Shown: positions 2,367 to 36,380, numbered from the stretch's first letter. The stretch is DNA of 53,396 bases from an uncultured Candidatus Saccharibacteria bacterium (GCA_964580765.1 CAZOKW010000003.1:1-53396); one strand, 5' to 3'. Translations and numbers: made by a program. The notes: a model not told the origin generated them from the sequence alone.

Positions 2367-2436
2367 CAGAGGCGTAGTGGGTACAGTTTTTGTTTTAAGA
2401 TATTAAAACGAAAACTATGTACCCCGAAAGCCTCTC
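2367..2436. repeat. family-1 covarying hairpin element, divergent copy, 7 nt upstream of the alaS start
   Basis: ggcgtagtGGGTACAGTTTT ... AAAACTATGTACCCC with an outer agaggc/gcctct stem. The arms match the other family-1 copies with compensatory substitutions. Confidence 0.55.
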
Positions 2437-2442
2437 GCGATT

Positions 2443-4095
2443 ATGACTCATCAAGAAATTAGAAAAAAGTTCATAAACTTCTTCAAAGAAAAAGGGCATG
2501 TGCTGGTGCCGTCTTCTTCGCTTGTTCCGGCTGATCCTTCGGTGCTTTTTACGACCGCCGGCATGCAGCAATTTAAACCATATTACACCGGTGAAGCCGA
2601 CCCGGAAAAAGATTTTGGCTCCAAAAATGTTATCTCAATTCAAAAATGCCTCCGCACCTCCGATATAGACGAGGTGGGGGATGAGTCCCACCTGACCTTT
2701 TTTGAAATGTTGGGAAATTTTTCTTTTGGCGGATACGGGAAAAAAGAAGCTATTCAATATGCTCACGAATTTATTACCAAGGAAATTGGACTGGAGATAG
2801 ATTATGTAACTGTTTTTGAGGGAGATACAGACATATCCGCCGACACAGAGTCAGAAGAAATATGGAAATCATTAGACCCTTCTCTGGAAATTAAAAAATC
2901 GGGCAAGAAAGATAATTTCTGGGGACCGACCGGAGATGCGGGCCCCTGCGGTCCCACTACCGAGATTTATGTGAACGGAGTGGAGGTTTGGAATCTCGTT
3001 TTTAACCAATACTATCAAAACAAAGATAAAACCCTGAACGAGCTCAAAATAAAAGGCATCGATACTGGCATGGGACTAGAGCGTCTGGCCATGGTCTCAC
3101 AAGGCGCACCGAATATCTTTGGATCCGATCTTTTTGCCTTTGGGAAAGAATTGCCAAGGATTATTGCTGATCACGCCAGGGCTATTGCATTTCTTATTTC
3201 TGATGGAGTATTGCCATCAAATAAAGAACAAGGCTACGTTTTACGACGCTTAATACGACGAATCATGGTTAAGAGTGGTGAACATACTGATCTTCGCGAT
3301 TTATTTAATTCAATCATTAGAGAATATAGACCTTTTTATGACAACTTGGATGAAAATAGAATATGGGAGGTATTTCAGACAGAAGCCGAAAAATTTTGGA
3401 AAACAATGGCCAAAGGACTTGGGGAACTCAATAAATTCGAATCCATTGATGCGCCAACTGCCTTTAAACTTTACGAGAGCTATGGTTTGCCCTATGAGAG
3501 CATTAAAGATTCCGGGAAGGCAAAAGATTTGACTCGCGAGAAATTCGACGAAGAATTTAAGAAGCATCAAGAAATTTCTAGAGCGGGAGCGGAAAAAAAA
3601 TTCGGAGGACACGGATTACTTCTAGATACAGGGGAAATTAAGGCGGTCACGGAAGAGGAAGTTAAGATTGTCACCCGCCTGCATACGGCTACCCACCTCT
3701 TGCATGCCTCGTTAAGAAAAATTCTCGGCGAAGAAGTTAAGCAAGCCGGTTCTGATATTACCGCCGAACGACTCCGATTTGATTTTACTTTTCCCAAAAA
3801 ATTAACCCCCGAAGAGCTGGAAAAAGTGGAAGATTTGGTAAACGAGGTGATTAAACAGGACTGGCCTGTTACCAAAGAAGAGATGCCTTATGAAGAAGCT
3901 ATAAAAACCGGGGCTTTGAGTTTTTTCAAACAGAAGTACCCCGAAGTCGTAAGTATTTACTCGGTGGGGGACTTTTCCAAAGAGCTTTGCGGCGGCCCTC
4001 ATGTTTCCCATACCGCCGTCATCGGCCGTTTTAAAATCATTAAGGAGGAAGCAGTTTCCGCCGGCACTCGAAGAATCAGAGCAGTAATATCCTAA
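2443..4095 (+). CDS. alaS: alanyl-tRNA synthetase, compact 550-aa form
   Basis: N-terminal FTTAGMQQFKPYY and GPCGPTTEIY catalytic motifs. Editing-domain HTATHLLH and CGGPHVSHT motifs lie at the C-terminus. No C-Ala domain. Confidence 0.85.
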   Translation: MTHQEIRKKFINFFKEKGHVLVPSSSLVPADPSVLFTTAGMQQFKPYYTGEADPEKDFGSKNVISIQKCLRTSDIDEVGDESHLTFFEMLGNFSFGGYGKKEAIQYAHEFITKEIGLEIDYVTVFEGDTDISADTESEEIWKSLDPSLEIKKSGKKDNFWGPTGDAGPCGPTTEIYVNGVEVWNLVFNQYYQNKDKTLNELKIKGIDTGMGLERLAMVSQGAPNIFGSDLFAFGKELPRIIADHARAIAFLISDGVLPSNKEQGYVLRRLIRRIMVKSGEHTDLRDLFNSIIREYRPFYDNLDENRIWEVFQTEAEKFWKTMAKGLGELNKFESIDAPTAFKLYESYGLPYESIKDSGKAKDLTREKFDEEFKKHQEISRAGAEKKFGGHGLLLDTGEIKAVTEEEVKIVTRLHTATHLLHASLRKILGEEVKQAGSDITAERLRFDFTFPKKLTPEELEKVEDLVNEVIKQDWPVTKEEMPYEEAIKTGALSFFKQKYPEVVSIYSVGDFSKELCGGPHVSHTAVIGRFKIIKEEAVSAGTRRIRAVIS

Positions 4096-4099
4096 TCTT

Positions 4100-4178
4100 G
4101 TTAGAGATCAGGCGGAGTGGGAACACTTTTGTGAGCGCCGTCGAATCAAAAGTATGTTCCCCGGAGCATGATCTCTAA
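4100..4178. repeat. family-1 hairpin element
   Basis: Perfect 12-bp outer inverted repeat tgttagagatca/tgatctctaaca enclosing ggcggagtgggaacactttt...aaaagtatgttccccggagc. Confidence 0.65.
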
Positions 4179-4254
4179 CATATTGTTGACATTTTGGCTT
4201 TGAATCTCTCTCAAAAAGCTATAAACTATAAACTAAGAACTATAAACTTCTTTT

Positions 4255-5868
4255 ATGGGGTCTACTAAGATTATCAATGTCCTCAAAAACGATAATTTCG
4301 AGGATGTTTTGGATGCCTTTCAAAAAACCGAAGCCGAGGAGGTCATCTTTATTTTCCCCAAAAATTCCTTATTGTCCAAGAAAGAACAACATTTCGCCCA
4401 ACTGGCCAGTGAGGCCGAAAAAACCAATAAACAAATCAGCGTCATAACGGCCGACCAAAACATCGAAAATTATGCCGAAAAATATGGCCTGCGGTTTATG
4501 GCCCAGCCGATTAAAAGTAAAAAGACCCCAGTTCTAGCCAAAATTGAGGCTAAGCCTCAATTAGAAGAAGTAGACAATGGACTTGGCGATGAGACAGAGA
4601 ACCACGAGGAACAATTAGCCGAATTGACCATGGCCAGCCCGAGGAAAACTTCCAAAACCGGAACGGCTAACAAGAAATTAGAAAAACTGGAAAGTTTTTG
4701 GGGAGGGTTTAATTTATCCTTGATTAAAAGAGGCGGGGGGCACCATAAATTAAATCTCCTTTTAATTTCTTCGGCTGTGGCCGCACTTCTTTTGACTTTG
4801 TTCATATTTTTAGGAAACGCCCAGATAATTATCAAACCGCAAAAACAAAAAATCCATTTTGAACTACCTGTATCTGTTTCGACCAACCTTGCTAAAACCG
4901 ATGCTATGGCAAACCAAATTCCCGGACAATTTCTGGCTTTTCGGGCCGATGTTTCCAAAGATTTTCCCTCCACCGGCGAAGAGGAGTTGGTCAGAAAAGC
5001 CAGAGGAGAACTTACCGTTTTTAATAATTTTAATTCCGATCCCCAAGGGTTAAGGGCCACCACCCGTTTTGAATCATCAAAAGGTTTAATTTTTAGAACG
5101 CCTCGGGCGATTATCGTCCCCGGAGCCAAACTGGTTAACGGCAAACTCGTTCCCGGCTCAATGACCGTCGAGGTGATTGCCGATAAACCTGGCCAGGAAT
5201 ACAATATTAATGCCGATCGTTTCACCATTCCCGGTTTTGCCGGTACGCCCAAATTTGAAGGTTTTTACGCCGAATCTTCCCAGCCAATGAGCGGGGGAAT
5301 GATTGGCCTCTCTAAAGTGGTAACCGAAAAGGACTTTAATTCGGCTAAGGACCTGGTAACCAAAGAATCCCTGGCCAAATCTCTGGAAAATTTAAAAACT
5401 AAAAAAGGGGAGCTGGAAATTGTTGAACCGATTACCAACAACATTATCTCCCTCAAATCTACGGCAGAAATAGACGATTCCGCCGATGGTTTTGCTATCG
5501 CCGCTACGGCCGAGGCGAAAACAATCGGTTTCTCCAAAGAAGATCTTCTCAAACTGATTGAGGCCTCCCTCAATAAAAACGGCCGTTGGATGCTTTTGGA
5601 AGAAGGTCTGCGGGTAGATTACACAAATATTAAATTTGATTTTGCCAAAAACACCCTAAACTTTACCGCTACGACTACCGGAACAGCGGTGGCCAGAATT
5701 GAAGAAGAAAAAATTATTGACGGCTTACCGGGCTTAAAACAAAACAAAATAGAAAATTACCTTTTAGGCTTTAAAGAAATTGAGTCGGCCCGGGTGATCC
5801 TTTCCCCTTTTTGGGTTAAAAGCATTCCCAAAGACAAACAAGATATACGAATAAAAATCGTCTATTAA
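4255..5868 (+). CDS. hypothetical single-pass membrane protein (537 aa)
   Basis: Long ORF preceded by tataaact repeats. One hydrophobic helix LLLISSAVAALLLTLFIFLG after a roughly 165-aa N-terminal region. No recognisable motifs. Confidence 0.5.
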   Translation: MGSTKIINVLKNDNFEDVLDAFQKTEAEEVIFIFPKNSLLSKKEQHFAQLASEAEKTNKQISVITADQNIENYAEKYGLRFMAQPIKSKKTPVLAKIEAKPQLEEVDNGLGDETENHEEQLAELTMASPRKTSKTGTANKKLEKLESFWGGFNLSLIKRGGGHHKLNLLLISSAVAALLLTLFIFLGNAQIIIKPQKQKIHFELPVSVSTNLAKTDAMANQIPGQFLAFRADVSKDFPSTGEEELVRKARGELTVFNNFNSDPQGLRATTRFESSKGLIFRTPRAIIVPGAKLVNGKLVPGSMTVEVIADKPGQEYNINADRFTIPGFAGTPKFEGFYAESSQPMSGGMIGLSKVVTEKDFNSAKDLVTKESLAKSLENLKTKKGELEIVEPITNNIISLKSTAEIDDSADGFAIAATAEAKTIGFSKEDLLKLIEASLNKNGRWMLLEEGLRVDYTNIKFDFAKNTLNFTATTTGTAVARIEEEKIIDGLPGLKQNKIENYLLGFKEIESARVILSPFWVKSIPKDKQDIRIKIVY

Positions 5869-5931
5869 CGGGGAATTTGACTTTTTATTGCTAATTTGAT
5901 AACATTTCCAAATCTATAGAAAAGCCCTTAT

Positions 5932-7182: not shown

Positions 7183-7818
7183 ATGGCACGATATACCGGA
7201 CCAAAAGAAAAATTAGAGAGACGCATCGGCACCAAGCTTTTTTTAAAAGGAGAGCGTTCCCTTTCCCCAAAATCAGCGACAGTTAGAAAACCCTATCCGC
7301 CCGGTATGCATGGCAAGGCTAAGTTTAAAAAATTATCGGAATATGGTCTTCAACTGCAATCCAAACAAAAAATTAAATATATTTACCGTCTTTTAGAAAA
7401 GCAGTTTAAGCGTTATGTCAAAGAGGCGATGAAGTCAAAAAAAGAAACTACCGCCCTGCTGATTAAGAACCTAGAAGAACGGCTAGACAATACGGTTTAC
7501 CGTATGGGACTGGCTCAATCCCGGGACCAAGCCCGTCAACTGGTCAACCATGGCCACATTTTGGTGAACAAAGTCAAAACAAATATTCCATCATTTAGAG
7601 TAAAAAAGGGGGACCAGATCAGTATCAGAGAAGGAAGTAAAAATACCAAATATTTTTCCGTTCTTCTGCCGGAGTGGTTCGCCAAACACGAAAGTCCGGA
7701 CTGGATTAAAGTAGAAAAAAACATCATGACAGGAACTATTGAGAAATCACCGGACATCAACAACAGCGGATTGGAATTTAAAGATATTCGGTCAATTATT
7801 GAATATTATTCAAAATAA
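7183..7818 (+). CDS. rpsD: 30S ribosomal protein S4
   Basis: MARYTGPKEKLERRIG... and the S4 domain LVNHGHILVN. Confidence 0.9.
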   Translation: MARYTGPKEKLERRIGTKLFLKGERSLSPKSATVRKPYPPGMHGKAKFKKLSEYGLQLQSKQKIKYIYRLLEKQFKRYVKEAMKSKKETTALLIKNLEERLDNTVYRMGLAQSRDQARQLVNHGHILVNKVKTNIPSFRVKKGDQISIREGSKNTKYFSVLLPEWFAKHESPDWIKVEKNIMTGTIEKSPDINNSGLEFKDIRSIIEYYSK

Positions 7819-7907
7819 AAATAAGTTATAAAGTTCATAAAGTTCATAAAGTAAAAAATTTTGACTTGATGGACTTGATAAACTTTATAACTTGATAAAC
7901 TAATATC

Positions 7908-11490: not shown

Positions 11491-11656
11491 TATAGAGGTC
11501 ATCTCAAACCCTCTTTCATTACGAAATTTTAAAAACTTTAAGCGAAAATAATGAAGATTGAGGAAGGATACTAATAGTATTTTGACGAAATCTGAATTAT
11601 TTGTAGCTAAAGTTTTTAAATTGCAGTAGAATATGGGGTTTGAGATGACCTCTACA
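11491..11656. mobile_element. MITE-like element with 21-bp terminal inverted repeats (20/21 match)
   Basis: Left arm tatagaggtcatctcaaaccc at 11491-11511; right arm gggtttgagatgacctctaca at 11636-11656. The left arm starts 3 nt from the start codon of the minus-strand PEGA gene. The right arm is an inverted copy of that gene's 5' end. Confidence 0.45.
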
Positions 11657-13191: not shown

Positions 13192-14445
13192 ATGTCAAGT
13201 AATCCCCTGAAAAAAATCGCCTTAGTTCATGACTGGCTTTTGGGATTGGGGGGGGCGGAGAGGACACTGAAGGTTCTGCATGAGATGTTTCCCCAAGCGC
13301 CAATTTATACTTTTTTTTACAACAAAAAATTTACCGATAAATTTTTACCGAACGCTCAAATTAGACCCTCCTTCATCCAGAAAATTTGTAAACTAAAAAC
13401 TATAAACTATAAACTATTCTTGCCCCTTCTGCCCATTGCCGCCGAGTCATTTGATTTAAGCCATTTTAATCTGGTCATCTCATCTTCCATCGCCTTTTCC
13501 AAGGGACTGATTTTGAAACCGAAAACAAAACATATCTGCTATTGCTACAGTCCCACTCGATTTTTGTGGGATTGGCACCAGGAATATTTACTTGGAAACG
13601 GGGTTTCCAAGTTAAATAAAGGATGGGGAGTTAAAATACTTCAACATTTTTTAAGAATCTGGGACCGGCAGTCCGCCAATCGGGTGGACCAGTTTGTGGC
13701 TATTTCCAAAACTGTTCAGCAACGCATTAAAAAATATTACGGACGAGATTCGATTGTAATTTATCCGCCAGTTACCAGAATTGAAAGCAGTGTACTCCCT
13801 CGGGACATTGATTTTCCCAGCGAGAAAATCAATTCACTGTCGGCTATGGATTTTGTCCGAAGTGAGGAAATTATACTTCGTCCAAACCATGCAATCCACA
13901 GCCGACAGTGCCCTCTGGAGTACACTGCTTCCAAATCTGATCTCATACCAAATTATTACTTAATCGTTTCCCGTTTATTCCCACACAAAAACATTGATAT
14001 CGCTATCAGGGCCTTTAACAAATTGGAACTGCCTCTGATAATTATCGGCGCTGGGCCGGAATATGGAAAATTAAAAAAAATAATTGAGAACAAGAATATG
14101 ATAAAATTACTGGGAGAGGTGCCGGATACAGAATTAGGAAACTATTACGCCGATACTAAGGCCTTTATCATGCCACAGGAAGAGGACTTTGGCATGACTC
14201 CATTGGAAGCCATGGCCTTTGGCAAACCGGTTCTGGCCTTGCGAAAAGGAGGGGCGCTGGAGTATGTTTTAGAAGGAATCAATGGAGAATTTTTTGACGA
14301 CCCTCATCCCGCCATTTTAGCCGACGGGGTCCGCCGTTTAAACGAAAATTATAAAAATTACAGCCCTTTAGTCATAAAAAAAACTGCGGAAAGATTTTCA
14401 CGCAGTCGGTTTGAAGAGGAGATAAAAAACATTATTTCAAAATGA
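13192..14445 (+). CDS. GT4-family glycosyltransferase with an in-frame palindromic-element insertion
   Basis: N-terminal ALVHDWLLGLGGAERT glycosyltransferase motif. The 141-bp family-4 element at 13788-13928 is a multiple of 3 and keeps the frame. Confidence 0.7.
   Translation: MSSNPLKKIALVHDWLLGLGGAERTLKVLHEMFPQAPIYTFFYNKKFTDKFLPNAQIRPSFIQKICKLKTINYKLFLPLLPIAAESFDLSHFNLVISSSIAFSKGLILKPKTKHICYCYSPTRFLWDWHQEYLLGNGVSKLNKGWGVKILQHFLRIWDRQSANRVDQFVAISKTVQQRIKKYYGRDSIVIYPPVTRIESSVLPRDIDFPSEKINSLSAMDFVRSEEIILRPNHAIHSRQCPLEYTASKSDLIPNYYLIVSRLFPHKNIDIAIRAFNKLELPLIIIGAGPEYGKLKKIIENKNMIKLLGEVPDTELGNYYADTKAFIMPQEEDFGMTPLEAMAFGKPVLALRKGGALEYVLEGINGEFFDDPHPAILADGVRRLNENYKNYSPLVIKKTAERFSRSRFEEEIKNIISK
13788..13928. 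mobile_element. family-4 palindromic element (TIR gcagNNtact...ccctc) inside the GT4 gene
   Basis: Outer inverted repeat gcagtgtactcc / ggagtacactgc. Inner pair cactgtcggctatggat / atccacagccgacagtg. Core ggattttgtccgaagtga...ttcgtccaaaccatgcaatcc is shared with the copy at 50689-50839. Confidence 0.6.
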
Positions 14446-14537: not shown

Positions 14538-15512
14538 ATGTCACCTCGTGTTTTTATAATCATTCTCCAGTACAACCATTCCCAAGACACTATTAAGTGC
14601 CTTGATTCGGTTGGGAAATTGACCTACCCCAACTTTCAAACAGTTGTCGTGGACAATGCTTCTCAAAGTTCTGAAAAAGATAATATCAAGAACTACATAA
14701 AAAGTCAAGGCAACATTGTTTTGCTCGAAAATGAAAAAAATTTGGGATACGCCGGAGGAAATAATACCGGAATAAAATACGCTTTAGCCCATGGCGCGGA
14801 TTATGTTTTCATTTTAAATAACGACACGACTGTTCCGCCGGACTTACTTGAGAAATTGGTAAACGAAGGGGAAAGTGACTCTAAAATTGGAATAGTGGGA
14901 CCGGCCATCAAAGAAGGGGATGGGCGAATCGCTTACTACGGAAAAATCTCCTGGCTCAAAGCAGAACTGAAACATGTCTATGGAAAATCAGCCATACACC
15001 TACTCGAAAATTCCCGAGCGACAAGTCGAGGGTCGAGAGTGGGTGGTATGGCTGATTTTCCCGATCGAGTACGAGTATTAGGGCCGAAAGAATATGTCAT
15101 CGGGGCGGGAATGCTTATCAAAAAAGAGGTACTGGAAAAGATAGATGGTTTTGATGAGGTTTACTTTCTATATTTTGAAGATGCCGACCTCTGTCTGCGC
15201 GCCCAATTAGCCGGTTATAAGCTCAAAATTGCCCCAGAAACAATGATTTATCACCAAGGAGCCGCCAGCACCTCTACTCTTGGCAAACCGCTACTTTTAC
15301 GGTACCATATGAGGAACGCTCTGATTTTTAACTCGCTCAACGCGCCTTGGCCAGTTAAGTTTAGTTTAATCTTCTGGTCCAGCTACATTTTACTGAAAAA
15401 CTTTTTGAAAGTTTTTCTTTTGCCATCCAAAGTAACGGCCGGAGAAGCCATCATTGACGGCGTGCTGGATTTTTATAAAAACAACTACGGAAAAATAAAT
15501 ACTCCCAATTAA
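14538..15512 (+). CDS. GT2-family glycosyltransferase with an in-frame family-2 element insertion
   Basis: VVDNASQ, GYAGGNNTG and EDADLCLRAQLAGYKL motifs. The frame is maintained across the 14985-15058 insert, which encodes KSAIHLLENSRATSRGSRVGGMADF. Confidence 0.75.
   Translation: MSPRVFIIILQYNHSQDTIKCLDSVGKLTYPNFQTVVVDNASQSSEKDNIKNYIKSQGNIVLLENEKNLGYAGGNNTGIKYALAHGADYVFILNNDTTVPPDLLEKLVNEGESDSKIGIVGPAIKEGDGRIAYYGKISWLKAELKHVYGKSAIHLLENSRATSRGSRVGGMADFPDRVRVLGPKEYVIGAGMLIKKEVLEKIDGFDEVYFLYFEDADLCLRAQLAGYKLKIAPETMIYHQGAASTSTLGKPLLLRYHMRNALIFNSLNAPWPVKFSLIFWSSYILLKNFLKVFLLPSKVTAGEAIIDGVLDFYKNNYGKINTPN
14985..15058. mobile_element. family-2 RPE-like palindromic element, copy 1, in-frame in the GT2 gene
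   Basis: aaatcagccatacacc...ctcgaaaattcccgagcgacaagtcgagggtcgagagtgggtgg...tatggctgattt with a terminal 16-bp imperfect inverted repeat. Confidence 0.7.
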
Positions 15513-15520
15513 TTAAATTG

Positions 15521-15691: not shown

Positions 15692-15708
15692 CAATTTAAT
15701 TAAAAAAT

Positions 15709-16875
15709 ATGTTAAGAATTGGTATAGAGTGCCATGCTCTAGAGGCAAATCGTTGGGGAGTGGGGCACCACTTAGCAAAACTGCTTGAAGAAATTTCTAT
15801 AAAATCTGAACTCGCCAACGAGTTCAGATTTTATCTTTACTTTAAAGGTCGTATTCCTGACGATTCTTACCTTAATAACCCCATCTTTGTAAAAAGAATT
15901 TTAAAACTACCCCTCATTAGTCCATCTTTTAACATTTTTTTTCATTTTCTTTTGCCCCTGGTCTACTTCAGAGACCATCTGCAAGCGGTCTTTTTTGCCG
16001 GTTTTATGTTGCCGGCATTTTTTCTGGGAAAATCATTGGTTCTTCTGACTAGCGACGTCTACTACGAATACACTCAAGGCCAATTGCCATTTCGCTACAA
16101 ATTGAGCTACGCCCTTTTCGCTAATTGGGCCGCTTGGCGCGCCACCAAAATTACCTCTCTATCAAACACGGACAAAGAGGAAATAGTAAAGATGTTTAAA
16201 ATTGCTCCTGAAAAAATCTCAGTCAATTATTTAGGGGTTGACCAAAAGCAGGTGGTTACCTCCCTTTTGCAGTTCGTCGGCGACGAGTCCGACGCAAAAA
16301 AGGGAGGTAACCACCTGCCTTTAAATTATCTTTTGTATGTTGGTCAAGCTTTTCCCCGAAGGAGAGCCAAGGAAACTATTCAATCCTTTGCTATTTTAGC
16401 TCCTAAGTATCCTGATTTAAAATTAATTCTGGTCGGCCAAGATAAATACAATCCGCCCGTTCTGCAAAATTTAGTTAAAGAAACAAACCAAAAACTCGGC
16501 GGGGAAAGAATAATTTATCATGGTTACATAGAAAACGACGATGAACTGCAAAAACTGATGGCCGGAGCAAAATTATTTATTTATCTATCGTCTTCCGAGG
16601 CCTTTGGTATTCCACCCCTGGAAGCACTAGCCGCCGGCGTTCCTCCGATAGTTAAAGACAACGACCTGAATCATGAACTTTATGAAGGCCATGCTTTTTA
16701 TGTGAAAGATGAAAAAGACCCGGTACAAATTGCCCTTGCTCTGGAAAAAGCTCTGACCGATATCGTCCGCCGTCAAGAAATTATTCAAAATTCAGAAAAA
16801 GTAATTTCAAAGTTCAACTGGAAAAATCACGCCGAAAAATTCCTTGAGACCATGAGAGAAATAGTAAAAAATTAA
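15709..16875 (+). CDS. GT4/GT1-family glycosyltransferase
   Basis: C-terminal EAFGIPPLEALAAGVPPIV retaining-GT motif. Confidence 0.7.
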   Translation: MLRIGIECHALEANRWGVGHHLAKLLEEISIKSELANEFRFYLYFKGRIPDDSYLNNPIFVKRILKLPLISPSFNIFFHFLLPLVYFRDHLQAVFFAGFMLPAFFLGKSLVLLTSDVYYEYTQGQLPFRYKLSYALFANWAAWRATKITSLSNTDKEEIVKMFKIAPEKISVNYLGVDQKQVVTSLLQFVGDESDAKKGGNHLPLNYLLYVGQAFPRRRAKETIQSFAILAPKYPDLKLILVGQDKYNPPVLQNLVKETNQKLGGERIIYHGYIENDDELQKLMAGAKLFIYLSSSEAFGIPPLEALAAGVPPIVKDNDLNHELYEGHAFYVKDEKDPVQIALALEKALTDIVRRQEIIQNSEKVISKFNWKNHAEKFLETMREIVKN

Positions 16876-18749
16876 TGCGAGAGGCTCCGGTGGACATACT
16901 TTTGTTCGACGGCGCTACAGGGATTCCGCAACGGGCCACTGCAGACATTGTGGCTACCGTTGCGGAACCTTCCATGCGACACAAAAGTGTCCCCACTCCG
17001 CCTCTGGTAAATATGTTTAAACACTTTGATACTCTTAAAAAACCAGTTAATGTCATCTTCCTAGTCCAAATTGTGGTCGTCTTTTTGGTGGCCTTCGGTG
17101 TCTGGCCAAGAACACTGATAATTCCTTTGACGGCCTTAATCGCCATTTTTATTTTACGAGCCGATTTGGAAACATCCGCTTCTTTTTTTATCCGCTCCAT
17201 ACCACTTTTCGTGGCCATTCCTTTTACCTCTTATTTTGATTCTTTCAATATCTGGCGAATCGCCGGGGGATTGATTTTTTTGAAATGGTTTTATCAATCG
17301 TACAAAGAAAGGATAAGAATAGCGGGCAAATCAGCCATACACCTACTCGAAAATTCCCGAGGAGATTCTATGGGCGGGCTAAAGCACCGCCCACCAGAAA
17401 CTTCTCCTGACAGCGACAGTCGAGGGTCGAGAGTGGGTGGTATGGCTGATTTGCTAGTCATAAAAATTAAAAAATATCCTTTAGCGTCTTTGTTAACGAC
17501 TTTTCTTTTACTTTCCACCCTATCCCTTCTAGCCGCCGAAGATATTTTTACTGGAATCAAAAGAATAATTTATTTAATCAATTTGAGTTTAGTTCCTCTA
17601 GTCGTTTACGACTTGATTAAAAAAAAACCCGCCCTCATCAAAAAGTTCTTAGATAGCATTTTGATTTCTGGAGTAATCGTGGCCGGAGTCGGCATCACCC
17701 AGTTAGTCAGCGCTTACTTAATGCCTTTGGGCGCTTTTCTGGATTTTTGGGGAGGTACGGTTCAGCTTGGCTTTTATGGCTCACAGTGGTCCAGTATCGC
17801 TTTAGAAGGGAACACTTGGTTTGCCTACTTCGGCGACCAACTATCTTTGCGAATTTTTTCAACTTTTACGGACTCTCACTCTTTTCCGGTTTACCTTTTA
17901 ATGACAATTCCAGCTCTCTTGGCTTTAGCTAAACTCACTTGGAAACGGGGTTTCCAAGTGAGTGGAATCGTTCTCCTTGTCTTGTATCTTCTGATTATCC
18001 TAAGCGGCACCCGAGGAATATGGTTAGCCGTTTTAGGACCTTTACTGGCTTGGCCGGTTTTAGTTAATTTTCTAAAAAGGGATGGGGGGAGTTTAGAAAA
18101 AAGTTTGTTAAAAAAACTCGGATTGCTCCTTTTGCCATTTTTTCTTCTTTTCGCCGCCGCTTTTCCTATTATGGGCTCGGACCAATTCTGGGTTGAAAAA
18201 GAAAATAATCAAATTCTGGCCAAACGGATTCGTTCCGTTCTCGATTTGAACGAGACATCAAATAGTGGACGGGTAGAAATCTGGAAAAAAACGGTCAAAT
18301 CAATTATTCACCGTCCGCTCCTGGGGGTGGGGATTGGTAACTTTCCAACTGTTCTTTCTCAGCATACTGACTTGGCCAAAGCCGGCTCTTCTGCGCATAA
18401 TCTCTATCTCCATATTGCCGCCGAAATCGGCCTAGTCGGGCTTTTAGCCGCTTTAGGTATTTTGTTCATAATTTTAAAAAGAAGTTGGGATGTTTTCCGA
18501 AGAGCCAATCAGCCACACCCCCACTCGAAAATTCCCGAGCGAGGAGTCGGGGGTCGAGAGTGGGTCGGTGTGGCTGATTGGCTCACTATTAAAACCTACG
18601 CTGCCGCTTTTGTCCTTTACAGTTTGTGGGTTTTGTTTTACTCTTTAACGGATGCGATAATGTTTGACGAGCGCGTTTTTCTCGTTTTTGCCATTAATTC
18701 AGCCGTTATTTTAGGTCTATATAAAACAAAATCCGCCTTAGCGGATTAA
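16875..18749 (+). CDS. O-antigen ligase (Wzy_C)-like polytopic membrane protein, with two in-frame family-2 element insertions
   Basis: Many TM helices. HNLYLHIAAEIGLVGLL Wzy_C-like motif. The start is uncertain because the first 40 codons overlap a family-1 remnant. Confidence 0.6.
   Translation: MREAPVDILLFDGATGIPQRATADIVATVAEPSMRHKSVPTPPLVNMFKHFDTLKKPVNVIFLVQIVVVFLVAFGVWPRTLIIPLTALIAIFILRADLETSASFFIRSIPLFVAIPFTSYFDSFNIWRIAGGLIFLKWFYQSYKERIRIAGKSAIHLLENSRGDSMGGLKHRPPETSPDSDSRGSRVGGMADLLVIKIKKYPLASLLTTFLLLSTLSLLAAEDIFTGIKRIIYLINLSLVPLVVYDLIKKKPALIKKFLDSILISGVIVAGVGITQLVSAYLMPLGAFLDFWGGTVQLGFYGSQWSSIALEGNTWFAYFGDQLSLRIFSTFTDSHSFPVYLLMTIPALLALAKLTWKRGFQVSGIVLLVLYLLIILSGTRGIWLAVLGPLLAWPVLVNFLKRDGGSLEKSLLKKLGLLLLPFFLLFAAAFPIMGSDQFWVEKENNQILAKRIRSVLDLNETSNSGRVEIWKKTVKSIIHRPLLGVGIGNFPTVLSQHTDLAKAGSSAHNLYLHIAAEIGLVGLLAALGILFIILKRSWDVFRRANQPHPHSKIPERGVGGREWVGVADWLTIKTYAAAFVLYSLWVLFYSLTDAIMFDERVFLVFAINSAVILGLYKTKSALAD
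16878..16918. repeat. truncated family-1 hairpin element (half copy, minus orientation)
   Basis: gaggctccggtggacatacttttgttcgacggcgct matches the left half of the reverse-oriented copy at 36301-36380. Confidence 0.4.
17328..17452. mobile_element. family-2 RPE-like element, copy 2, with a 50-nt internal insertion
   Basis: Same termini aaatcagccatacacc / ggtatggctgattt. The extra internal hairpin is gggcgggctaaagcaccgccc. It is in-frame in the ligase gene. Confidence 0.65.
18505..18581. mobile_element. family-2 RPE-like element, copy 3
   Basis: ccaatcagccacacc / ggtgtggctgattgg is a perfect 15-bp terminal stem with paired compensatory changes (atac to acac, gtat to gtgt). It is read in a different frame from copy 2 within the same ligase gene. 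Confidence 0.65.
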
Positions 18750-21138: not shown

Positions 21139-21143
21139 CTATC

Positions 21144-21213
21144 AAGAGGCGGAGGGGAACACTTTTTTTGAGCGCCGTCGAATAAAAAAGTATGTTCACC
21201 AGAGCCTCTGGCG
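21144..21213. repeat. family-1 hairpin element
   Basis: aagaggcggaggggaacactttttttgagcgccgtcgaataaaaaagtatgttcaccagagcctctgg. It is the reverse complement of the copy at 36301-36380. Confidence 0.65.
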
Positions 21214-21218
21214 AGTAT

Positions 21219-25546: not shown

Positions 25547-26344
25547 TTATCTTATCCGGCTCAACCAGAATTGGTTTTCCCACTCCCAAAGAGTTTTGCA
25601 AGCCAAAAAAGCGGAAAAATCATGATTCTGACCGGGCAATTCTTTCAGCTCCGCTTCTCCGACCATTTCACTCCATTGGTGTTGGCAATTTTTTCCTTTG
25701 CCCTCCGAAGCTTTACTGTGTCCGTCCGAAGCGCTTCGCGAAGGAGGAGCGTAGGAGGGGACTCTTATCTTAGGTGTACCGCCCTTCAAACGCAAAGTAG
25801 CCGGACAATTTAAGCATTTATGGTGCTGGTCCAAACGCAATATCCAGCGGGTCATAGAAGAGGGAAGGCCATTTTCTATCAAGGCCTCCACATAAGCAGC
25901 GGTCTGGATGCCATAATCCCTATAAATGGAATAGGAAGTTTTAATATCTAAAACTCCAAGTTGGCCGTTCACTTCCGCCAAGACATCCAAAGTGCCGGAG
26001 TAGCGGTGCTTTTTACTGACTAATCTTTCCTCGATCTGTTTGGCCGAGACCTGGTTGTGATTTAGAAAATTCATAAAAGCGTCAATAACCGGGCGGATGT
26101 TTTCCGGAATGACCGGCTGCCGGCCGCTTAAAATCGCCTCAACCGTTTCGTGAATTAAAGTTCCTTCTTCCGCCGATTTAGCCTTCATCGCTTCCCCGGC
26201 TTCAAAACTTTCCTGCTCCGCATAAAATTTATAAAGCCCCGGCTTAGCTTTCATGGAAACAATTTGAGTAACCCGCGGATACCAAAAACCATCAATGGTA
26301 TAACCGGAAGCCATCTTAAAATCTTCTAGAGTCCGATAAAACAT
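25547..26344 (-). CDS. PD-(D/E)XK nuclease, Cas4/RecB-exonuclease-like, with an embedded family-3 element
   Basis: GTLDVL...LGVLDIKTS...YGIQTAAY (D, EXK and QxxxY motifs). C-terminal Cys cluster HHKCLNCP...C, interrupted by the element at 25700-25760 that encodes APPSRSASDGHSKASEG. Confidence 0.55.
   Translation of the reverse strand: MFYRTLEDFKMASGYTIDGFWYPRVTQIVSMKAKPGLYKFYAEQESFEAGEAMKAKSAEEGTLIHETVEAILSGRQPVIPENIRPVIDAFMNFLNHNQVSAKQIEERLVSKKHRYSGTLDVLAEVNGQLGVLDIKTSYSIYRDYGIQTAAYVEALIENGLPSSMTRWILRLDQHHKCLNCPATLRLKGGTPKIRVPSYAPPSRSASDGHSKASEGKGKNCQHQWSEMVGEAELKELPGQNHDFSAFLACKTLWEWENQFWLSRIR
25700..25760. mobile_element. family-3 (CCGAAGC) palindromic element inside the Cas4-like gene
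   Basis: gccctccgaagctttactgtgtccgtccgaagcgcttcgcgaaggaggagcgtaggagggg. The central cgaagcgcttcg is a perfect palindrome. It matches 32380-32439. Confidence 0.65.
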
Positions 26345-30065: not shown

Positions 30066-31397
30066 TTATAGGTAATCTAATGGATTTATTGAACCTTCAA
30101 AATAGTTAAAATATAACTGGCCGTTTTTTTCGTTGATATAAGTAAAGAAATCTTTATAAACACTTAGATGTAAATGGGAGCCGGTGGAATTTCCGGTAGA
30201 CCCCTCATAACCGATAACATCACTGGCCGTAACCGCCAAACCATTAACCAAACCGGAAGGAGCGCGCAGATGAGCGTAAACACTGACCAATCCGCCATTG
30301 TGCCGCACAGCCACCCAATGGCCGAAACCATCGTTAAACCCGCTGGCCAAAATATTTCCGGCGGCCATCGGATGAATGGCCGTACCATAACCGCCCGCCA
30401 AATCAATCCCGTTATGAGGAGCGCCACCATAAGGTTTTCGTCTGGAACGGGCATAAGCGGTATATCCGTAACCTTGGGTAATGTGATATTCATCTTCCGG
30501 CCATTGAAAAATTTTAGTTCCCCGCGGAGGAACCGCATCAGCCGTCACATGTACGATAAAAGCCCCAGACTGCAAGGCCTGATCTTCCAAATTCTTTAAT
30601 TCCGCGAAAAACTCCGCTTCTTTCTTCTCCGTTTCCGCCAGTAATTTTTGATACTCCGCCTCCTGCCCCTTGGTCCTGACCAAAAGATTGTTCTTGTTCG
30701 ATTTGGTGCCGCTTAAAGCCACCTGCTGATTCTTCTGTGAATTATTCAACTTTTCCAAATCCTGTTTTTTTATTTCCAGTTCGGTCTTATTTTCTTCCAG
30801 TTCTTGGCGTTCGTTTTTTAAAACAGTAATGGCGGCCAACAAACTCTTGTTTAAATTATCGGCCTGCTTGGCTTGATCCAAAAAATCGGAAAGGTGGTTA
30901 TTTTTCAACAAAATAGCCAGCCAGTTTTCCCGGTCGTTTTGATACATCATTTTCAGTAAACTGCCCACCGTATCTTGACGATTTTTGATCTTTTCGTGCC
31001 GGTCAAAAATTTTATCGCGCAAATCCCCGATTACCAACTGTGTAGAGGAAATCTTATTTCCGGTTATTCTGACTTCCGTTTCCAACCGGCTGATCTGATT
31101 GGTCAAAACGCTTATTTCTTTTTGTAAACTAGTCGCCTCCTTTTGCTTGCCGGAAACAACTTTTTTATATTCATCTGATTTCTTTTGCAGTTCTTCCAAC
31201 TGTTTTCTCAAGTCCAATATTTTCTGATTGACATCTTCCGCCGCCAATCCAGATCCGGAATAAAAAAAGAAAGAGAAGAAAACGACCAGGCAAATCAGCC
31301 ATACACCTACCTGAAAACTCCCGAGCGACAAGTCGAGGGTCGAAGGTAGGTTGTATTGCTGATTTGCTAAAAATTTACTTTTGAATTGCTTTTTCAA
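30066..31397 (-). CDS. M23 family metallopeptidase with coiled-coil region (EnvC-like)
   Basis: Long coiled-coil. C-terminal HNGIDLA...GSTGNSTGSHLHLSV M23 motifs. The N-terminal 35 codons are encoded by the family-2 element copy at 31292-31365. Confidence 0.7.
   Translation of the reverse strand: MKKQFKSKFLANQQYNLPSTLDLSLGSFQVGVWLICLVVFFSFFFYSGSGLAAEDVNQKILDLRKQLEELQKKSDEYKKVVSGKQKEATSLQKEISVLTNQISRLETEVRITGNKISSTQLVIGDLRDKIFDRHEKIKNRQDTVGSLLKMMYQNDRENWLAILLKNNHLSDFLDQAKQADNLNKSLLAAITVLKNERQELEENKTELEIKKQDLEKLNNSQKNQQVALSGTKSNKNNLLVRTKGQEAEYQKLLAETEKKEAEFFAELKNLEDQALQSGAFIVHVTADAVPPRGTKIFQWPEDEYHITQGYGYTAYARSRRKPYGGAPHNGIDLAGGYGTAIHPMAAGNILASGFNDGFGHWVAVRHNGGLVSVYAHLRAPSGLVNGLAVTASDVIGYEGSTGNSTGSHLHLSVYKDFFTYINEKNGQLYFNYFEGSINPLDYL
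31292..31365. mobile_element. family-2 RPE-like element, copy 4, antisense within the 5' end of the M23 peptidase gene
   Basis: aaatcagccatacacctacc...cccgagcgacaagtcgagggtcgaaggtaggttgtattgctgattt. Confidence 0.6.
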
Positions 31398-32835
31398 TTC
31401 TAGTAAGTGTTTTATCTCGTCCTAATATACCCATAATCTGCACCGGATCGGGAGAAAACTTCTCTCCGCTTAAAGCCACCCGCAAAGGCCAATAAACCGC
31501 CCCTCTGTCTCCGCCGAATTCTTTTTCGGCCAATTGATCCAACTCGGAACGAATATATTTCTCATCAAAAATCTCCCACTCAGTTTTGCTTTCCAAAATT
31601 TCTTTAGCTAATTCTAGGGCCTTTTTTGCCCCCTCCTTATCCGATTTTTTCCAGACCAGTAAATCAGATTCGTACTCCGGCTCGACAAAGAAAAACTTAA
31701 ATTCTTTAACCTGCTCAAAATGTTCTAATCGCTCCCGCAACATCGGCGCTATTTTGATAATTTTTTCATTGGCCTGCTCTCCAAAATATTTTTCCACAAA
31801 GTGTTTGGCTGCTTCGGCCAGTCCCTCGTCGTTGAACATTTTAATATACTGCGAGTTAACCCAGTTTAATTTTTTGATATCAAAAATCGCTCCGCTTTGA
31901 TGAACTTTTTCTAAACTAAACTGCTCAATAATTTCATTCTTGGTTAGTATCTCTCTGTCTCCCTCCGAACTCCACCCCAACGCCGCCAAAAAATTCACCA
32001 TGGCCTCCGGCAGATAACCAGACTCTTTGTAAAAAGAAAAATCAGTTGATCCGTGTCGTTTGGAAAGCTTGGAACGGTCCGCCCCCAAAAGCAAAGGCAA
32101 ATGGGCAAATTGTGGGACCGGCGCTCCCAACGCTTCGAAAATTAGAATTTGTTTGGGAGTGTTGGAAATGTGGTCTTCGCCACGAATGACATGACTTATT
32201 TGCATTTCATAGTCGTCCACCGCCACGGCAAAATTGTAGAGCGGAGTTTGCAGGTTTTTCGCCAAACTCAAATCCCCCACCACTTTCTGCTCAAACTCAA
32301 TATGACCCCGAACCGCGTCTTCAAAATGAATAATTCTGGTCGAATTTTCATCTACCGCCAATCTAATGATCCCTGGCTTGCCCTCCGAAGCTTTACTGTG
32401 TCCGTCCGAAGCGCTTCGCGAAGGAGGAGCGAAGGAGGGATATTTATGTTCGCAAATATGGCGTGGCGCTTCTTTTTTGGTCATCTGCTCCTCTTTTTCT
32501 TTATTTAGTTCCTCAATGGAGTGATAGCACCAAAAGGCCTTTTTCTCTTCCAAAAGTTTTTGTAAATATTTTTCATAGAGGGCCGACCGTTCACTGGAAC
32601 GATAAAACTCATCCCATTTTAAACCCAGCCACTCCAAACCGGACATGATGCTTTTCTCAAATTCGGATCTTGATCTTTCCTTGTCGGTATCCTCAATTCG
32701 TAAAATAAATTCACCGCCATGGTGGCGGGCAAAAAGCCAATTATACAAAGCCGATTGAGCTGTGCCCACATGTAAATTCCCCGTCGGCGAAGGCGCCACC
32801 CTAGTCCGAATTTTTAGCTTTTGAACTTTAGTCAT
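31375..32835 (-). CDS. gltX: glutamyl-tRNA synthetase with an in-frame family-3 element insertion
   Basis: RVAPSPTGNLHVGTAQSALYNWLFARHHGG and KLSKRHG class-I motifs. The insert EHKYPSFAPPSRSASDGHSKASEGK precedes the conserved PGIIRLAV. Confidence 0.85.
   Translation of the reverse strand: MTKVQKLKIRTRVAPSPTGNLHVGTAQSALYNWLFARHHGGEFILRIEDTDKERSRSEFEKSIMSGLEWLGLKWDEFYRSSERSALYEKYLQKLLEEKKAFWCYHSIEELNKEKEEQMTKKEAPRHICEHKYPSFAPPSRSASDGHSKASEGKPGIIRLAVDENSTRIIHFEDAVRGHIEFEQKVVGDLSLAKNLQTPLYNFAVAVDDYEMQISHVIRGEDHISNTPKQILIFEALGAPVPQFAHLPLLLGADRSKLSKRHGSTDFSFYKESGYLPEAMVNFLAALGWSSEGDREILTKNEIIEQFSLEKVHQSGAIFDIKKLNWVNSQYIKMFNDEGLAEAAKHFVEKYFGEQANEKIIKIAPMLRERLEHFEQVKEFKFFFVEPEYESDLLVWKKSDKEGAKKALELAKEILESKTEWEIFDEKYIRSELDQLAEKEFGGDRGAVYWPLRVALSGEKFSPDPVQIMGILGRDKTLTRIEKAIQK
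32380..32439. mobile_element. family-3 (CCGAAGC) element inside gltX
   Basis: gccctccgaagctttactgtgtccgtccgaagcgcttcgcgaaggaggagcgaaggaggg, differing at 1 of 60 positions from 25700-25759. Confidence 0.7.
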
Positions 32836-32903
32836 ATTAAAATATTAACATATTTTTATGACTATCCTCAATACTTAATATTTGTGATAATTTAAAGGTA
32901 TAG

Positions 32904-33536: not shown

Positions 33537-33555
33537 AAAAGGTATATTAAGCGCG

Positions 33556-34002: not shown

Positions 34003-34014
34003 TGCCAACAAAAT

Positions 34015-34338: not shown

Positions 34339-34398
34339 AGGGGAAGAAATTGGCTGGCATTGCTTTTGAAAGTGCTGCGCTTTAATTATTTTAAGCAA

Positions 34399-34589
34399 AG
34401 TACCCACCCATCTTTTTTCAAATATGGTCGATTGGTTGCAAATTACCGAAGCGGAGTGAAAATTTGGCCGGTAGATTAAAATTCGGTCCGACTCTTGGAG
34501 GGGTACTGAATTTTAGTCGGCAAATTGAACGGAGCGAGGATAATTTGTCCAAGAGGGCATCTTGAAAAGAGAGGGGTGGGGACGGAGCT
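34399..34589 (+). ncRNA. candidate structured element SE, copy 2, upstream of fmt
   Basis: About 95% identical to copy 1. The 5' end gtacccacccatcttttttcaa is complementary to the 3' end cttgaaaagagaggggtggggac. It ends 9 nt before the fmt ATG. Confidence 0.4.
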
Positions 34590-34597
34590 GAAAACAA

Positions 34598-35488
34598 ATG
34601 AAAATTATTTTCTTTGGAACTTTTCAGTACGCCGTTCCGGCTTTGGAACGGTTAATTAAGGCCGGCTATGAGATTGTGGCCGTTGTCACTAACCCCGATT
34701 CTTTTCAGGGAAGAAAGAAAGAATTGGTGGCCAGTCCCGTCAAACTCGCCGCCCAGCAATACGGCTTAACTGTTTTTCAGCCTCCCAGTTTGAAAATTGG
34801 AAAATTAGAAAATTATTTGGAAATTGAAAATTTTAAATTGAAAATTAAATCCGCCGATCTGGGCATCGTCGTAGCCTACAGCAAAATAATCCCAAAAGAA
34901 ATTTTGGGATTATTTCCTAAAGGTGTTTTGAACATTCACCCCTCTCTCCTGCCCCTTTACCGGGGTCCCTCCCCTATTCAGTCGGCTATTTTAAACGGAG
35001 AAAAAGAAACGGGAGTAACCATTATGCAAATTGACGAAGAAGTGGATCACGGGGCCATTTTATCTCAAGCCAAATATGTAATTCCTCCCGAAGCGCTCCA
35101 CCCCCAAATTGCCATGGAAATTTTCCAGTTAGGAGCAGAACTTTTAATTAAAACTATCCCCGATTGGCTGGCTGGAAAAATCATCCCCCAGCCCCAAGAA
35201 CACACTTGTGCCACTTTTACTAAAAAATTCTCCTGGGAAAACGGGCGAATTGATTGGAATCAGCCGGCGGAAAAAATATATAACCAAATCCGCGCCCTCA
35301 ATCCTGAACCCGGCACCTGGACCACTTGGAAACGGGGTTTCCAAGTGAAAATCTTGAAAATATTAAAAGCCGAAATCGGAGAGGATGGAAAAGTACTTCC
35401 TCAAGAAGTCCAACCGGAAGGCAAAAAAGCCATGCCTTTCCAAGATTTCCTCCGTGGAGTTGGCCAAAAAGAACTGGATTTTAAATAG
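34598..35488 (+). CDS. fmt: methionyl-tRNA formyltransferase
   Basis: IIFFGT and HPSLLPLYRGPSPIQ SLLP-type motifs. There is a low-complexity AT-rich insertion LKIGKLENYLEIENFKLKIKS at 34795-34860. Confidence 0.85.
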   Translation: MKIIFFGTFQYAVPALERLIKAGYEIVAVVTNPDSFQGRKKELVASPVKLAAQQYGLTVFQPPSLKIGKLENYLEIENFKLKIKSADLGIVVAYSKIIPKEILGLFPKGVLNIHPSLLPLYRGPSPIQSAILNGEKETGVTIMQIDEEVDHGAILSQAKYVIPPEALHPQIAMEIFQLGAELLIKTIPDWLAGKIIPQPQEHTCATFTKKFSWENGRIDWNQPAEKIYNQIRALNPEPGTWTTWKRGFQVKILKILKAEIGEDGKVLPQEVQPEGKKAMPFQDFLRGVGQKELDFK

Positions 35489-35512
35489 AAAACTTGCTAT
35501 TGTAAAAATCTA

Positions 35513-36301
35513 ATGACTGAAAAATCACCGGACCTGCCCTTCCGAAGCTCCGATTTATCCTTCGAAACTTTAGTGAAGGAGGAAGGAGCGAAGGAGGGAA
35601 AAATATTGGAAGTTAAGGACTTGGCTGTCTCTTTTGACAGTTTTAATGTTTTTCATGACATCTCTTTTGAACTGGCCCGCGGAGAAGTGATGGCGGTAGT
35701 CGGACCGAACGGCTCCGGAAAGACGGTTTTATTCCGGGCGCTTTTGAAATTAATTCGTTATCAAGGCGCGGTAATCTGGAACAAGGACATCAAGATTGGC
35801 TATGTGCCCCAAAAACTTTTTGTGGATAGCCAATTCCCCGTCAGCGTCGGTGACTTTTTTAAATTCAAAACTAAATCCAAGGAAGCCATGACAGAGGCCC
35901 TAAATTCCGTTGGTTTCAGCGAAGATTTTGAACATCTCAAACATCATGTCTTAAACAAAAAGTTAGGAGCGCTTTCTGGAGGACAACTCCAAAGAGTCCT
36001 GATTGCCTGGAGCATCATCAACAAGCCGGACATCCTTCTTTTTGACGAACCGACTTCCGGTATCGATATCGGCGGAGAAGAAACTATTTACAACCTCCTG
36101 CACAAACTCCAAGCCAGTTCCCACTTAGCGCTCATTTTAATTTCGCACGACCTGAATATTGTTTACAAATATGCCGATAAGGTTTTATGCCTTAACAAAG
36201 AAGCAATTTGCTACGGCCCCCCGCATGAAGTATTAAATACTGCCAATTTAAGCCAGCTCTACGGAGGAGAAACAAAATTTTACGAACACAAACATGAGTA
36301 G
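35513..36301 (+). CDS. ABC transporter ATP-binding protein (ZnuC/MntB-like)
   Basis: Walker A GPNGSGKT, signature LSGGQLQRV, Walker B LLFDEPTSGID. The first 30 codons are a family-3 element. An alternative TTG start at 35606 has AGGAGG 8 nt upstream, supplied by the element. Confidence 0.75.
   Translation: MTEKSPDLPFRSSDLSFETLVKEEGAKEGKILEVKDLAVSFDSFNVFHDISFELARGEVMAVVGPNGSGKTVLFRALLKLIRYQGAVIWNKDIKIGYVPQKLFVDSQFPVSVGDFFKFKTKSKEAMTEALNSVGFSEDFEHLKHHVLNKKLGALSGGQLQRVLIAWSIINKPDILLFDEPTSGIDIGGEETIYNLLHKLQASSHLALILISHDLNIVYKYADKVLCLNKEAICYGPPHEVLNTANLSQLYGGETKFYEHKHE
35535..35598. mobile_element. family-3 (CCGAAGC) element at the 5' end of the ABC ATPase gene
   Basis: gcccttccgaagctccgatttatccttcgaaactttagtgaaggaggaaggagcgaaggaggg. 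Confidence 0.55.
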
Positions 36302-36380
36302 ATTGGATTGTAGGCTCCGGTGAACATACTTTTTTATTCGACGGTGCTCAAAAAAAAGTGTTCCCCTCCGCCTCCAATCC
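36301..36380. repeat. family-1 hairpin element (reverse orientation) between the ABC ATPase and permease genes
   Basis: gattggattgtaggctccggtgaacatacttttttattcgacggtgctcaaaaaaaagtgttcccctccgcctccaatcc. It is the reverse complement of 21144-21213, with a copy-specific outer stem. Confidence 0.65.

Follow-up and report, generated by a model that had tools for sequence, protein, structure and literature searches.

Family-1 palindromic elements between the genes of a Parcubacteria genome fragment: probable non-autonomous mobile DNA

Genomes of the Candidate Phyla Radiation (CPR) are about 1 Mb or less in size and are thought to be streamlined. A stretch of 53,396 nucleotides deposited as DNA of an uncultured Candidatus Saccharibacteria bacterium (GCA_964580765.1 CAZOKW010000003.1:1-53396; the whole stretch is hereafter called the window) carries, in five of its intergenic spacers, copies of a hairpin-forming repeat, here termed family 1, the arms of which differ between copies in a manner that preserves base pairing. 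The question raised is whether these hairpins are RNA structures kept by the host, as proposed in a preliminary description made from the DNA alone, or DNA elements that move. [quoted passage not shown] This reading is based on the existence of a repeat family, empty sites, TA flanks, copies placed in-frame in coding sequence, a modular and nested organisation, the pattern of covariation, the lack of an orientation preference and precedents in other bacteria, and also on the occurrence of three other palindromic families in-frame in genes of the same window.

Copies in the window and their common fold

A scan of the window, with filters off, using a covariance model that was first made from the window copies and then rebuilt from 15 copies, returned exactly five matches (E-values 1e-18 to 1e-14; scores and coordinates in Table 1), at the places where they had been located previously. 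The element as defined by the model runs a few bases past the limits given in the preliminary description, and the stretch 16878-16918, regarded there as a half copy, belongs in fact to a full copy (copy 3) whose other arm lies at 16980-17005 and whose loop holds a 62-nt hairpin. The next-best matches in the window are the reverse strands of the same five loci, at 22 bits or less, and the gap between the two strands (about 70-80 bits against at most 22) indicates that the element has a defined polarity. Unrelated genomes totalling 714 kb gave no match at E<=0.01, despite chance occurrences of the loop motif. All five copies are intergenic and, as had been described, flanked on both sides by genes of the same (+) direction; three of them point one way and two the opposite way. 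An assembly artefact was rejected, as the copies recur in independent NCBI, ENA, JGI and Logan assemblies. Weak model matches at 13245-13309 of the window and at 13726-13795 of a relative's contig (L109; such contigs are denoted by L numbers) were rejected as chance, both falling within a conserved N-terminal motif of a GT4 glycosyltransferase.

The element is about 70-80 nt long, has no open reading frame (ORF) of its own and consists of inverted arms with the ends CCAGAGGC...GCCTCT(n)G, also written CCAGAGGCGGAG...GCCTCT. The sequence that the copies share, given in one orientation, reads CCAGAGGC-GGAGT-GGGAAC-AC-TTTT[loop]AAAA-GT-AT-GTTCCC-CGGA-GCCTCTnG, and the conserved, polar basal module is 5' (TA)nCCAGAGGC-GGAGT-GGGAAC-AC...GT-AT bulge-GTTCCC-CGGA-GCCTCTnGnGAT(TA) 3'. 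All copies share one fold: an outer stem of 6-8 bp, an internal loop of 4-5 x 4-5 nt and a middle stem of 6 bp, then a bulge of 2 nt on the 3' side, which reads AT or TT, and lastly an inner stem topped by a tip that varies. The arms are not complementary to themselves, and the whole element makes a single long hairpin. Compared with dinucleotide shuffles, the DNA of either strand folds with z values of -2.5 to -7.4 (0-6 of 200 shuffles fold equally well), and the RNA folds are very stable (-20 to -37 kcal/mol).

Conserved in every copy are the basal arms, the bulge and the internal loop, which is rich in purines (GNAG facing CGRA). The apical part is specific to the subtype and pairs in every copy: it is TTTT-GTGAGCGCCGTCGAA-AAAA in subtype A, a 12-bp AT-rich stem in subtype B, which includes copy 1, and CAGTCACTTTT-TGC-AAAAGTGACTG in the L109 type. 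Ahead of the middle stem, copy 1 and L115 have the motif GTAG, L111 and L116 have GCAG, and subtype A has GGAG. Copies 2 and 5 carry private self-complementary outer extensions, and copy 2 has in addition matching 5-nt insertions in both arms. The outer stems had been described as perfect, which holds for the 12 bp of copy 2; that of copy 5 (ggattgtagg/cctccaatcc) contains one mismatch. The loop can enclose other hairpins, as in copy 3, and in L112 a 5' half copy directly precedes a full copy. A second copy of the 62-nt hairpin in the loop of copy 3 was not found in the window or in the relatives' contigs examined.

Empty sites, flanks and copies within genes

The window's AlaS protein has 100% identity with the AlaS of the metagenome-assembled genome (MAG) 'Parcubacteria group bacterium Gr01-1014_44'; identity falls to 80-81% in the next relatives and to about 70% in Yanofskybacteria. 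Contigs of relatives, obtained through homologues of AlaS and of the O-antigen ligase (Wzy_C), contain ten further copies of 62-78 bits (L026, L108, L109 (= L110), L111 x3, L112 x2, L115 and L116), besides two decayed ones (L116:3505 and L117:715-790). The total of 15 copies occupies 9 distinct loci, which span alaS, the glycosyltransferase cluster, the ABC transporter, the mreB region and the interior of Wzy, with presence and absence varying between genomes. When a loose pattern anchored in the loop was searched over a genome collection, L026 was the only real match among those listed, the rest being chance, and a stricter pattern searched over metagenomes gave one contig, L108. No family-1 match was obtained in the viral contigs, plasmids and phages searched, and about 65 kb of syntenic outgroups (L120 and L121 of Yanofskybacteria, and L124 with a Wzy 55% identical) contain no copy and have tight gene junctions. 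On the genomes compared, family 1 is restricted to a narrow clade within the Parcubacteria.

L109/L110, whose AlaS is 81% identical, lack copies 1 and 2. In these contigs the -10-like box leads straight into the alaS ATG (...TGTTAGATTTATCACCAATGACTCAT), and in the window the same box (TGTTAAATT) is followed by the 80-nt element and then by the ATG. The gap between alaS and the next gene measures 50 nt in L109 against 159 nt in the window, where it holds copy 2. The site of copy 3 is empty in L026 and L112, in which the stop of GT1 adjoins or overlaps the start of Wzy (TAATG; TAATAAATG), and the junction of copy 4 is filled in L111 and empty in L115/L116, with LytR and GT2 overlapping or 11 nt apart. 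Comparison of these orthologous sites shows the copies to be insertions relative to empty sites.

The landing sites are A/T-rich gene boundaries, either stop/start junctions or the interval between promoter and ATG, and the intergenic copies have no orientation preference. TA stands outside both ends at a constant spacing in copies 1, 3 and 4, L111:13567 and L109:12577 (TA-n-CCAGAGGC...GCCTCT-n5-6-TA), and a single TA is found at empty sites (L116 ...GAAT TA TGACTTT; L115 ...AAAA TA TGACTTT; L112 GTAA TA AATG); copy 5 and some of the copies in coding sequence do not show TA flanks. Duplication of a TA target on insertion is likely from this arrangement. At 6945-6975 of L116, the 'empty' LytR|GT2 junction (AAATAACCGAATTATG) resembles both termini of the element (…TATCC / GAGATT…) without the hairpin, and the sequence AACCGAATTATG at this junction could be the footprint of an excision or deletion.

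Unrelated hairpins occur at some of the same places. An unrelated palindrome lies at the copy-4 site in L117 (5045-5105), and the divergent spacer between mreB and a PEGA-domain gene (419 aa) is occupied by a palindrome of 160 nt in the window (11493-11654) and by a family-1 variant in L109/L110 (L109 12577-12653). The junctions seem to serve as hot spots common to different families of hairpins.

Copies are not restricted to spacers; in relatives they are also found in loop-coding regions of a gene for a membrane protein. Five lie inside intact Wzy_C ORFs (L026, L111, L112 x2 and the decayed one of L116), the L026 copy being placed within an intact ORF of 550 aa at a loop between hydrophobic segments. 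All three sense frames are used, and all five copies lack stops and preserve the downstream frame, the chance of the latter being about (1/3)^5. Conservation of the frame in five of five argues for translation and not removal, and the copies in genes appear to be translated. Splicing of an intron-like RNA from coding sequence was rejected, as frame and absence of stops, kept in all five, would be needless if the copies were spliced. Six-frame translations of the element gave no scored match in a protein database, matches of 22 residues being too short for a database of that size. Wzy orthologues without an insert exist, and close orthologues vary by insertions at three loops. The Wzy_C orthologues of the clade, with in-frame insertions at these loops, range in length from 526 to 600 aa, and the same loops of the window's own Wzy (17013-18749) hold a different palindromic family.

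Covariation, competing explanations and mechanism

The compensated changes described for the copy upstream of alaS are confirmed: its arms are GGGTAC-AG / CT-AT-GTACCC in place of GGGAAC-AC / GT-AT-GTTCCC elsewhere, with A-T/T-A and C-G/G-C exchanges, and in the middle stem of copy 3 one more pair is compensated, A-T having become G-C. In a table of pairs checked by hand, one position of the middle stem is A-T in 8 copies, T-A in 4, G-C in 2 and T.T in 1, and the pair beside the T/A run is G-C in 10 and C-G in 5 with no mismatches; another position has G-C in 7 and a recurrent G.A in 6. An automated count, made on an alignment fitted to the structure, found 85.6% of the cells paired, against 77% when shuffled and 30-54% when the partners were slid, with changes on both sides at 11 pairs and a level of covariation reached in none of 500 shuffles. 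The description of the copies as dispersed, REP-like palindromic repeats with pairing preserved by two-sided changes thus stands.

The differences between subtypes keep pairing, and the changes of single copies mostly disrupt it (T.T in L108; C.A and two apical mismatches in L115; A.C in L111), others giving G.T; in L116 the AT bulge faces an inserted AT at exactly the opposite position, which makes the stem perfect. G.T and A.C mismatches on the consensus strand number about 7 and 3, counts that are few and non-independent. Such a combination of compensated subtype changes and uncompensated private changes is expected if only the copies that keep the fold seed new copies. Compensatory changes across the hairpin are already common in the mobile REPINs (PMC3116915), so covariation cannot discriminate between a mobile element and a host RNA.

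The preliminary description had taken the covariation to point to a selected structure, in RNA or cruciform DNA; in the reading that follows from it, the hairpins are RNA structures selected by the host and kept as mRNA stabilisers, processing sites or attenuators, for example by occluding the alaS start. The covariation that preserves pairs would be accommodated by such a role, as would the stability of the RNA folds, the position of every window copy inside a co-directional gene string, the end of copy 1 close to the alaS start codon (5-7 nt before the ATG, in agreement with the earlier observation), the conservation of the elements beyond that of the synonymous sites of host genes and the filling of the same junctions in several species. 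This reading is nevertheless quite improbable, since close relatives have empty sites and outgroups with the same operons are free of copies, both orientations are used although the element is strongly polar, relatives carry in-frame copies within coding sequence, and private changes disrupt pairs. As regards an attenuator or terminator role, the terminator signature of a GC-rich stem and a T-run is present on the transcribed (+) strand in none of the family-1 copies, and copies are missing at the same genes in relatives. Rfam 15 gave no match in the window at the gathering score, and no relevant one at E<=1 in L108 or in the surroundings of copies 1 and 2. Two further RNA candidates were rejected. 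An independent small-RNA gene is not consistent with the lack of consistent promoter and terminator signals, the use of both orientations and the presence of some copies in genes, and the loop geometry, by inspection, does not fit a bulge-helix-bulge motif or a kink-turn.

The alaS copy is, judged from the orthologous sites, a lineage-specific insertion and not an ancestral leader. The conserved extended -10-like box is a putative alaS promoter, and its position suggests that the alaS message would be nearly leaderless; copy 1 probably turns it into a message with a structured leader of 80 nt that has no Shine-Dalgarno sequence. This leader could matter for the expression of alaS.

The perfect stem of L116, the private outer extensions of copies 2 and 5, the matching insertions in both arms of copy 2 and the occurrence of different subtypes at one junction in the same orientation would also be expected without any transposition, if the hairpins grew or were corrected in place by quasi-palindrome template switching and were homogenised by gene conversion. 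Such a process leaves unexplained both the same 70-80-nt sequence at unrelated loci and in different genomes and the clean empty sites, and the arms, at about 20 nt, offer little length for conversion by recombination; it is regarded as highly improbable.

If family 1 is mobile DNA, insertion would take place at a TA dinucleotide, which would be duplicated. An IS630/Tc1-like transposase acting in trans, by analogy with the RUP and Correia elements, is the leading candidate for the enzyme, tentatively and at somewhat less than even confidence, and the main alternative route, possible though on the doubtful side, would be through a single-stranded hairpin and an HUH/RAYT-like enzyme (RAYT, REP-associated tyrosine transposase). 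Pairing would persist because new copies arise only from those in which the fold, or the match between the ends, is intact. Effects on the host, such as the hairpin in the alaS leader and those between cistrons, would be by-products and not the reason for the existence of the element.

A true REP/REPIN type, in which the folded single strand is mobilised by a single-copy HUH tyrosine (RAYT-like) transposase and the elements persist vertically under selection for recognition, has to be considered here, since the entire element folds and not only its ends, its variable apical part is always paired, and the internal loop and the 2-nt bulge are conserved. GTAG is found just 5' of the middle stem in B-subtype copies, and the conservation across species is like that reported for REPIN populations. 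Transposition by HUH enzymes is not known to make a target duplication, and the TA on both flanks of family 1 resembles one. The GTAG is not conserved (subtype A has GGAG), the arms are not individually palindromic and hence form no REP doublet, copies lie in genes whereas REPs are overwhelmingly extragenic, and no Y1 (RAYT-like) transposase was seen in the window and the relatives' contigs examined. The compensatory changes on record for REPINs (PMC3116915) count in favour of this type, which is on balance unlikely.

Several observations weigh against mobility itself. A search for a transposase in the window, and among the called genes of relatives' loci totalling about 150 kb, was negative, and no autonomous element with family-1 ends came to light in the window or those loci. 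The TA duplication is judged against relatives 20-30% diverged in DNA, and the TA could belong to the termini of the element. Insertion polymorphism within a species was not seen, L118 and L119 being identical to the window at copies 1 and 2. The sample amounts to just 15 copies, which are not independent of one another. The GT1|Wzy junction is filled in five genomes by three subtypes in one orientation and empty in two, which is odd for random insertion. B-subtype relatives of copy 1 stand at this junction, a different locus from that of copy 1, in L111, L115 and L116; they are 89-94% identical to one another and 84-90% to window copy 1, and the GT1 gene beside them has a DNA identity of 72-84%, with 50-74% at third codon positions. 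An identity of 84-94% across genomes with such third positions needs continuing activity, horizontal spread or real constraint: the insertions may be recent, repeated and site-specific, the element may have spread horizontally between populations that occur together, or it may be under constraint.

Constraint is taken up in a bolder proposal, namely that family 1 and the other palindromic families have long persisted in ultra-small CPR genomes as a population of hairpin replicators on which purifying selection acts. It is suggested by the identity of 84-94% despite saturated synonymous sites, by the filling of one junction in five genomes in one orientation and by the conserved internal loop and bulge, and is rather doubtful. 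If true, it could mean a dedicated recognition enzyme or a use by the host, such as punctuation between cistrons, or else a systematic part in the remodelling of protein loops, including those of the essential glutamyl-tRNA synthetase and Fmt.

As an observation on the assemblies, L118 and L119 (ENA ERZ27284378; NCBI GCA_007376105.1 contig VMFO01000017.1) share the same 10-14 kb with the window with one difference, C/T at position 3480 inside alaS, and represent the same strain.

Known systems and other repeats of the window

Bacterial MITEs are inserted close to the beginnings and ends of genes, within each other and in some cases within genes, and as a side effect can alter expression; the RPEs are short, transposase-less elements found, in a bacterium with a small genome, both in intergenic regions and in-frame in unrelated genes, to which they add a peptide segment (PMC10969869). 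Family 1 works like an RPE, being in-frame in the Wzy of four relatives, while three other families of the window lie in-frame in gltX, fmt, glycosyltransferase and other genes; it is not a member of that group. There is no sequence relationship, the hosts are Patescibacteria/Parcubacteria and not Alphaproteobacteria, and family 1 is about 70-80 nt long against about 100-150 nt for RPEs. In addition, all five window copies are intergenic, family 1 has a TA-flank signature, and it uses three reading frames where RPEs have one conserved peptide.

Like the REPs and REPINs, family 1 consists of imperfect, hairpin-forming palindromes scattered over gene ends in either orientation, with conserved ends, a variable spacer and long-lasting conservation. 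It differs in that REPs are essentially extragenic, whereas five of the 15 family-1 copies lie within coding sequence; in that a REPIN is a doublet of two palindromic REPs, whereas family-1 arms are not palindromic; and in having an apparent TA duplication, no conserved GTAG and no RAYT in the window or the relatives' contigs examined. The Correia/NEMIS elements of Neisseria and RUP of pneumococcus are likewise small, with terminal inverted repeats and hairpin folding; they have a TA target duplication and are mobilised by IS630-type transposases. Family 1 is shorter, is constrained to pair in its interior as well and has no known related insertion sequence, promoter, integration host factor site or RNase III cleavage. 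The small dispersed repeats of cyanobacteria, described by Elhai and co-workers in 2008, are reportedly very small (about 20-30 nt), hairpin-forming and often nested, and belong to a different phylum from the host of family 1. By sequence, family 1 belongs to none of the RPE, REP/REPIN and TA-flanked MITE groups. Full-text literature searches on palindromic elements or MITEs in CPR/Patescibacteria gave nothing relevant.

A 53-kb piece thus holds five family-1 copies and at least three other palindromic families, some of them in-frame in gltX, fmt, glycosyltransferase and O-antigen ligase genes. Such elements, including those in-frame in essential genes, are unexpected in streamlined CPR genomes, and frequent in-frame insertion of palindromes has so far been treated as a peculiarity of Rickettsia. 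Palindromic elements also create false signals of 'conserved RNA structure', alter proteins and leaders, and inflate or distort the gene calls of CPR MAGs: the N-terminus of one Wzy ORF (P0122) is extended through a junction copy, and the GT1 ORF of L111 ends at a stop inside a copy. Related genomes with filled and empty sites could help to explain the movement of palindromic elements that lack a transposase.

Table 1. Family-1 copies, neighbouring signals and other repeats in the window (positions counted from its first nucleotide)
Feature	Position	Strand	Bits	Location	Remarks
Copy 1, subtype B	2362..2442	+	79.8	Between conserved extended -10 box and alaS ATG (2443)	DNA fold z -6.9; arms GGGTAC-AG...CT-AT-GTACCC; 12-bp AT-rich apical stem
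Copy 2, subtype A	4099..4180	+	79.3	Starts 4 nt past alaS stop codon	Loop GAGCGCCGTCGAA; private outer stem of 12 bp, perfect, TGTTAGAGATCA/TGATCTCTAACA
Copy 3, subtype A, inverted	16873..17011	-	64.6	GT1 stop (16875) to true Wzy start (17013)	
Hairpin nested in copy 3	16918..16979			Loop of copy 3	62 nt, GGATTCCGCAACGG...CCGTTGCGGAACC; defined against the loops of copies 2 and 5, folds computed
Copy 4, subtype A	21139..21216	+	80.2	LytR_cpsA_psr stop (21138) to GT2 start (21219)	
Copy 5, subtype A, inverted	36300..36384	-	71.1	ABC ATPase stop (36301) to ABC-3 permease start (36395)	Private outer stem with one mismatch
Extended -10-like box	2351..2359	+		Upstream of alaS; copy 1 inserted between box and ATG	TGtTAAATT; TGtTAGATT in L109/L110
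Terminator-like hairpin and T-run	2315..2332	+		After the upstream gene	Separate from copy 1
Second palindromic family	14982-15058, 17310-17452, 18503-18579, 31289-31365			In-frame in intact GT2, Wzy (x2) and M23 peptidase genes	77 nt, AATCAGCCATACACCTACTCGAAAATTCCCGAG...GGGTGGTATGGCTGATT
62-nt repeat	25698-25759, 32378-32439			In-frame in PD-(D/E)XK nuclease-like gene and gltX	98% identical
Short perfect palindrome	13590-13616, 17937-17963, 35324-35350			In-frame in GT4, Wzy and fmt	ACTTGGAAACGGGGTTTCCAAGT
Longer repeat	15509-15703, 34395-34590, 49012-49294			Upstream of GT1, fmt and dnaB	About 180-270 nt; inverted ends CCCACCCATCTTTTTTCAAATATG / CATCTTGAAAAGAGAGGGGTGGGG
Direct-repeat arrays	7818-7904, 42636-42751, 4214-4248, 13381-13415			Before rpoA, in the clpB/hrcA spacer, just downstream of copy 2, inside GT4	8-9-nt AT-rich units (TAAAGTTCA, ACTTGATAA, TATAAACT)

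In the second palindromic family, the loop of the Wzy copy at 17310-17452 encloses a hairpin of 46 nt, a composite that recurs at L026:2811 and L116:4665. Both copies of the 62-nt repeat encode PS(Y/F)APPSRSASDGHSKASEGK, the gltX copy lying in the catalytic domain of glutamyl-tRNA synthetase, and the short perfect palindrome encodes TWKRGFQV in Wzy and fmt. The longer repeat forms one long hairpin and has no credible Rfam match. The first two direct-repeat arrays listed are inverted copies of each other. The 537-aa ORF that follows alaS (4255-5868) has no Pfam match. AlaS itself (2443-4095) is only 550 aa long, comprising the catalytic domain and the second additional domain, and measures about 540-600 aa in all the relatives found.

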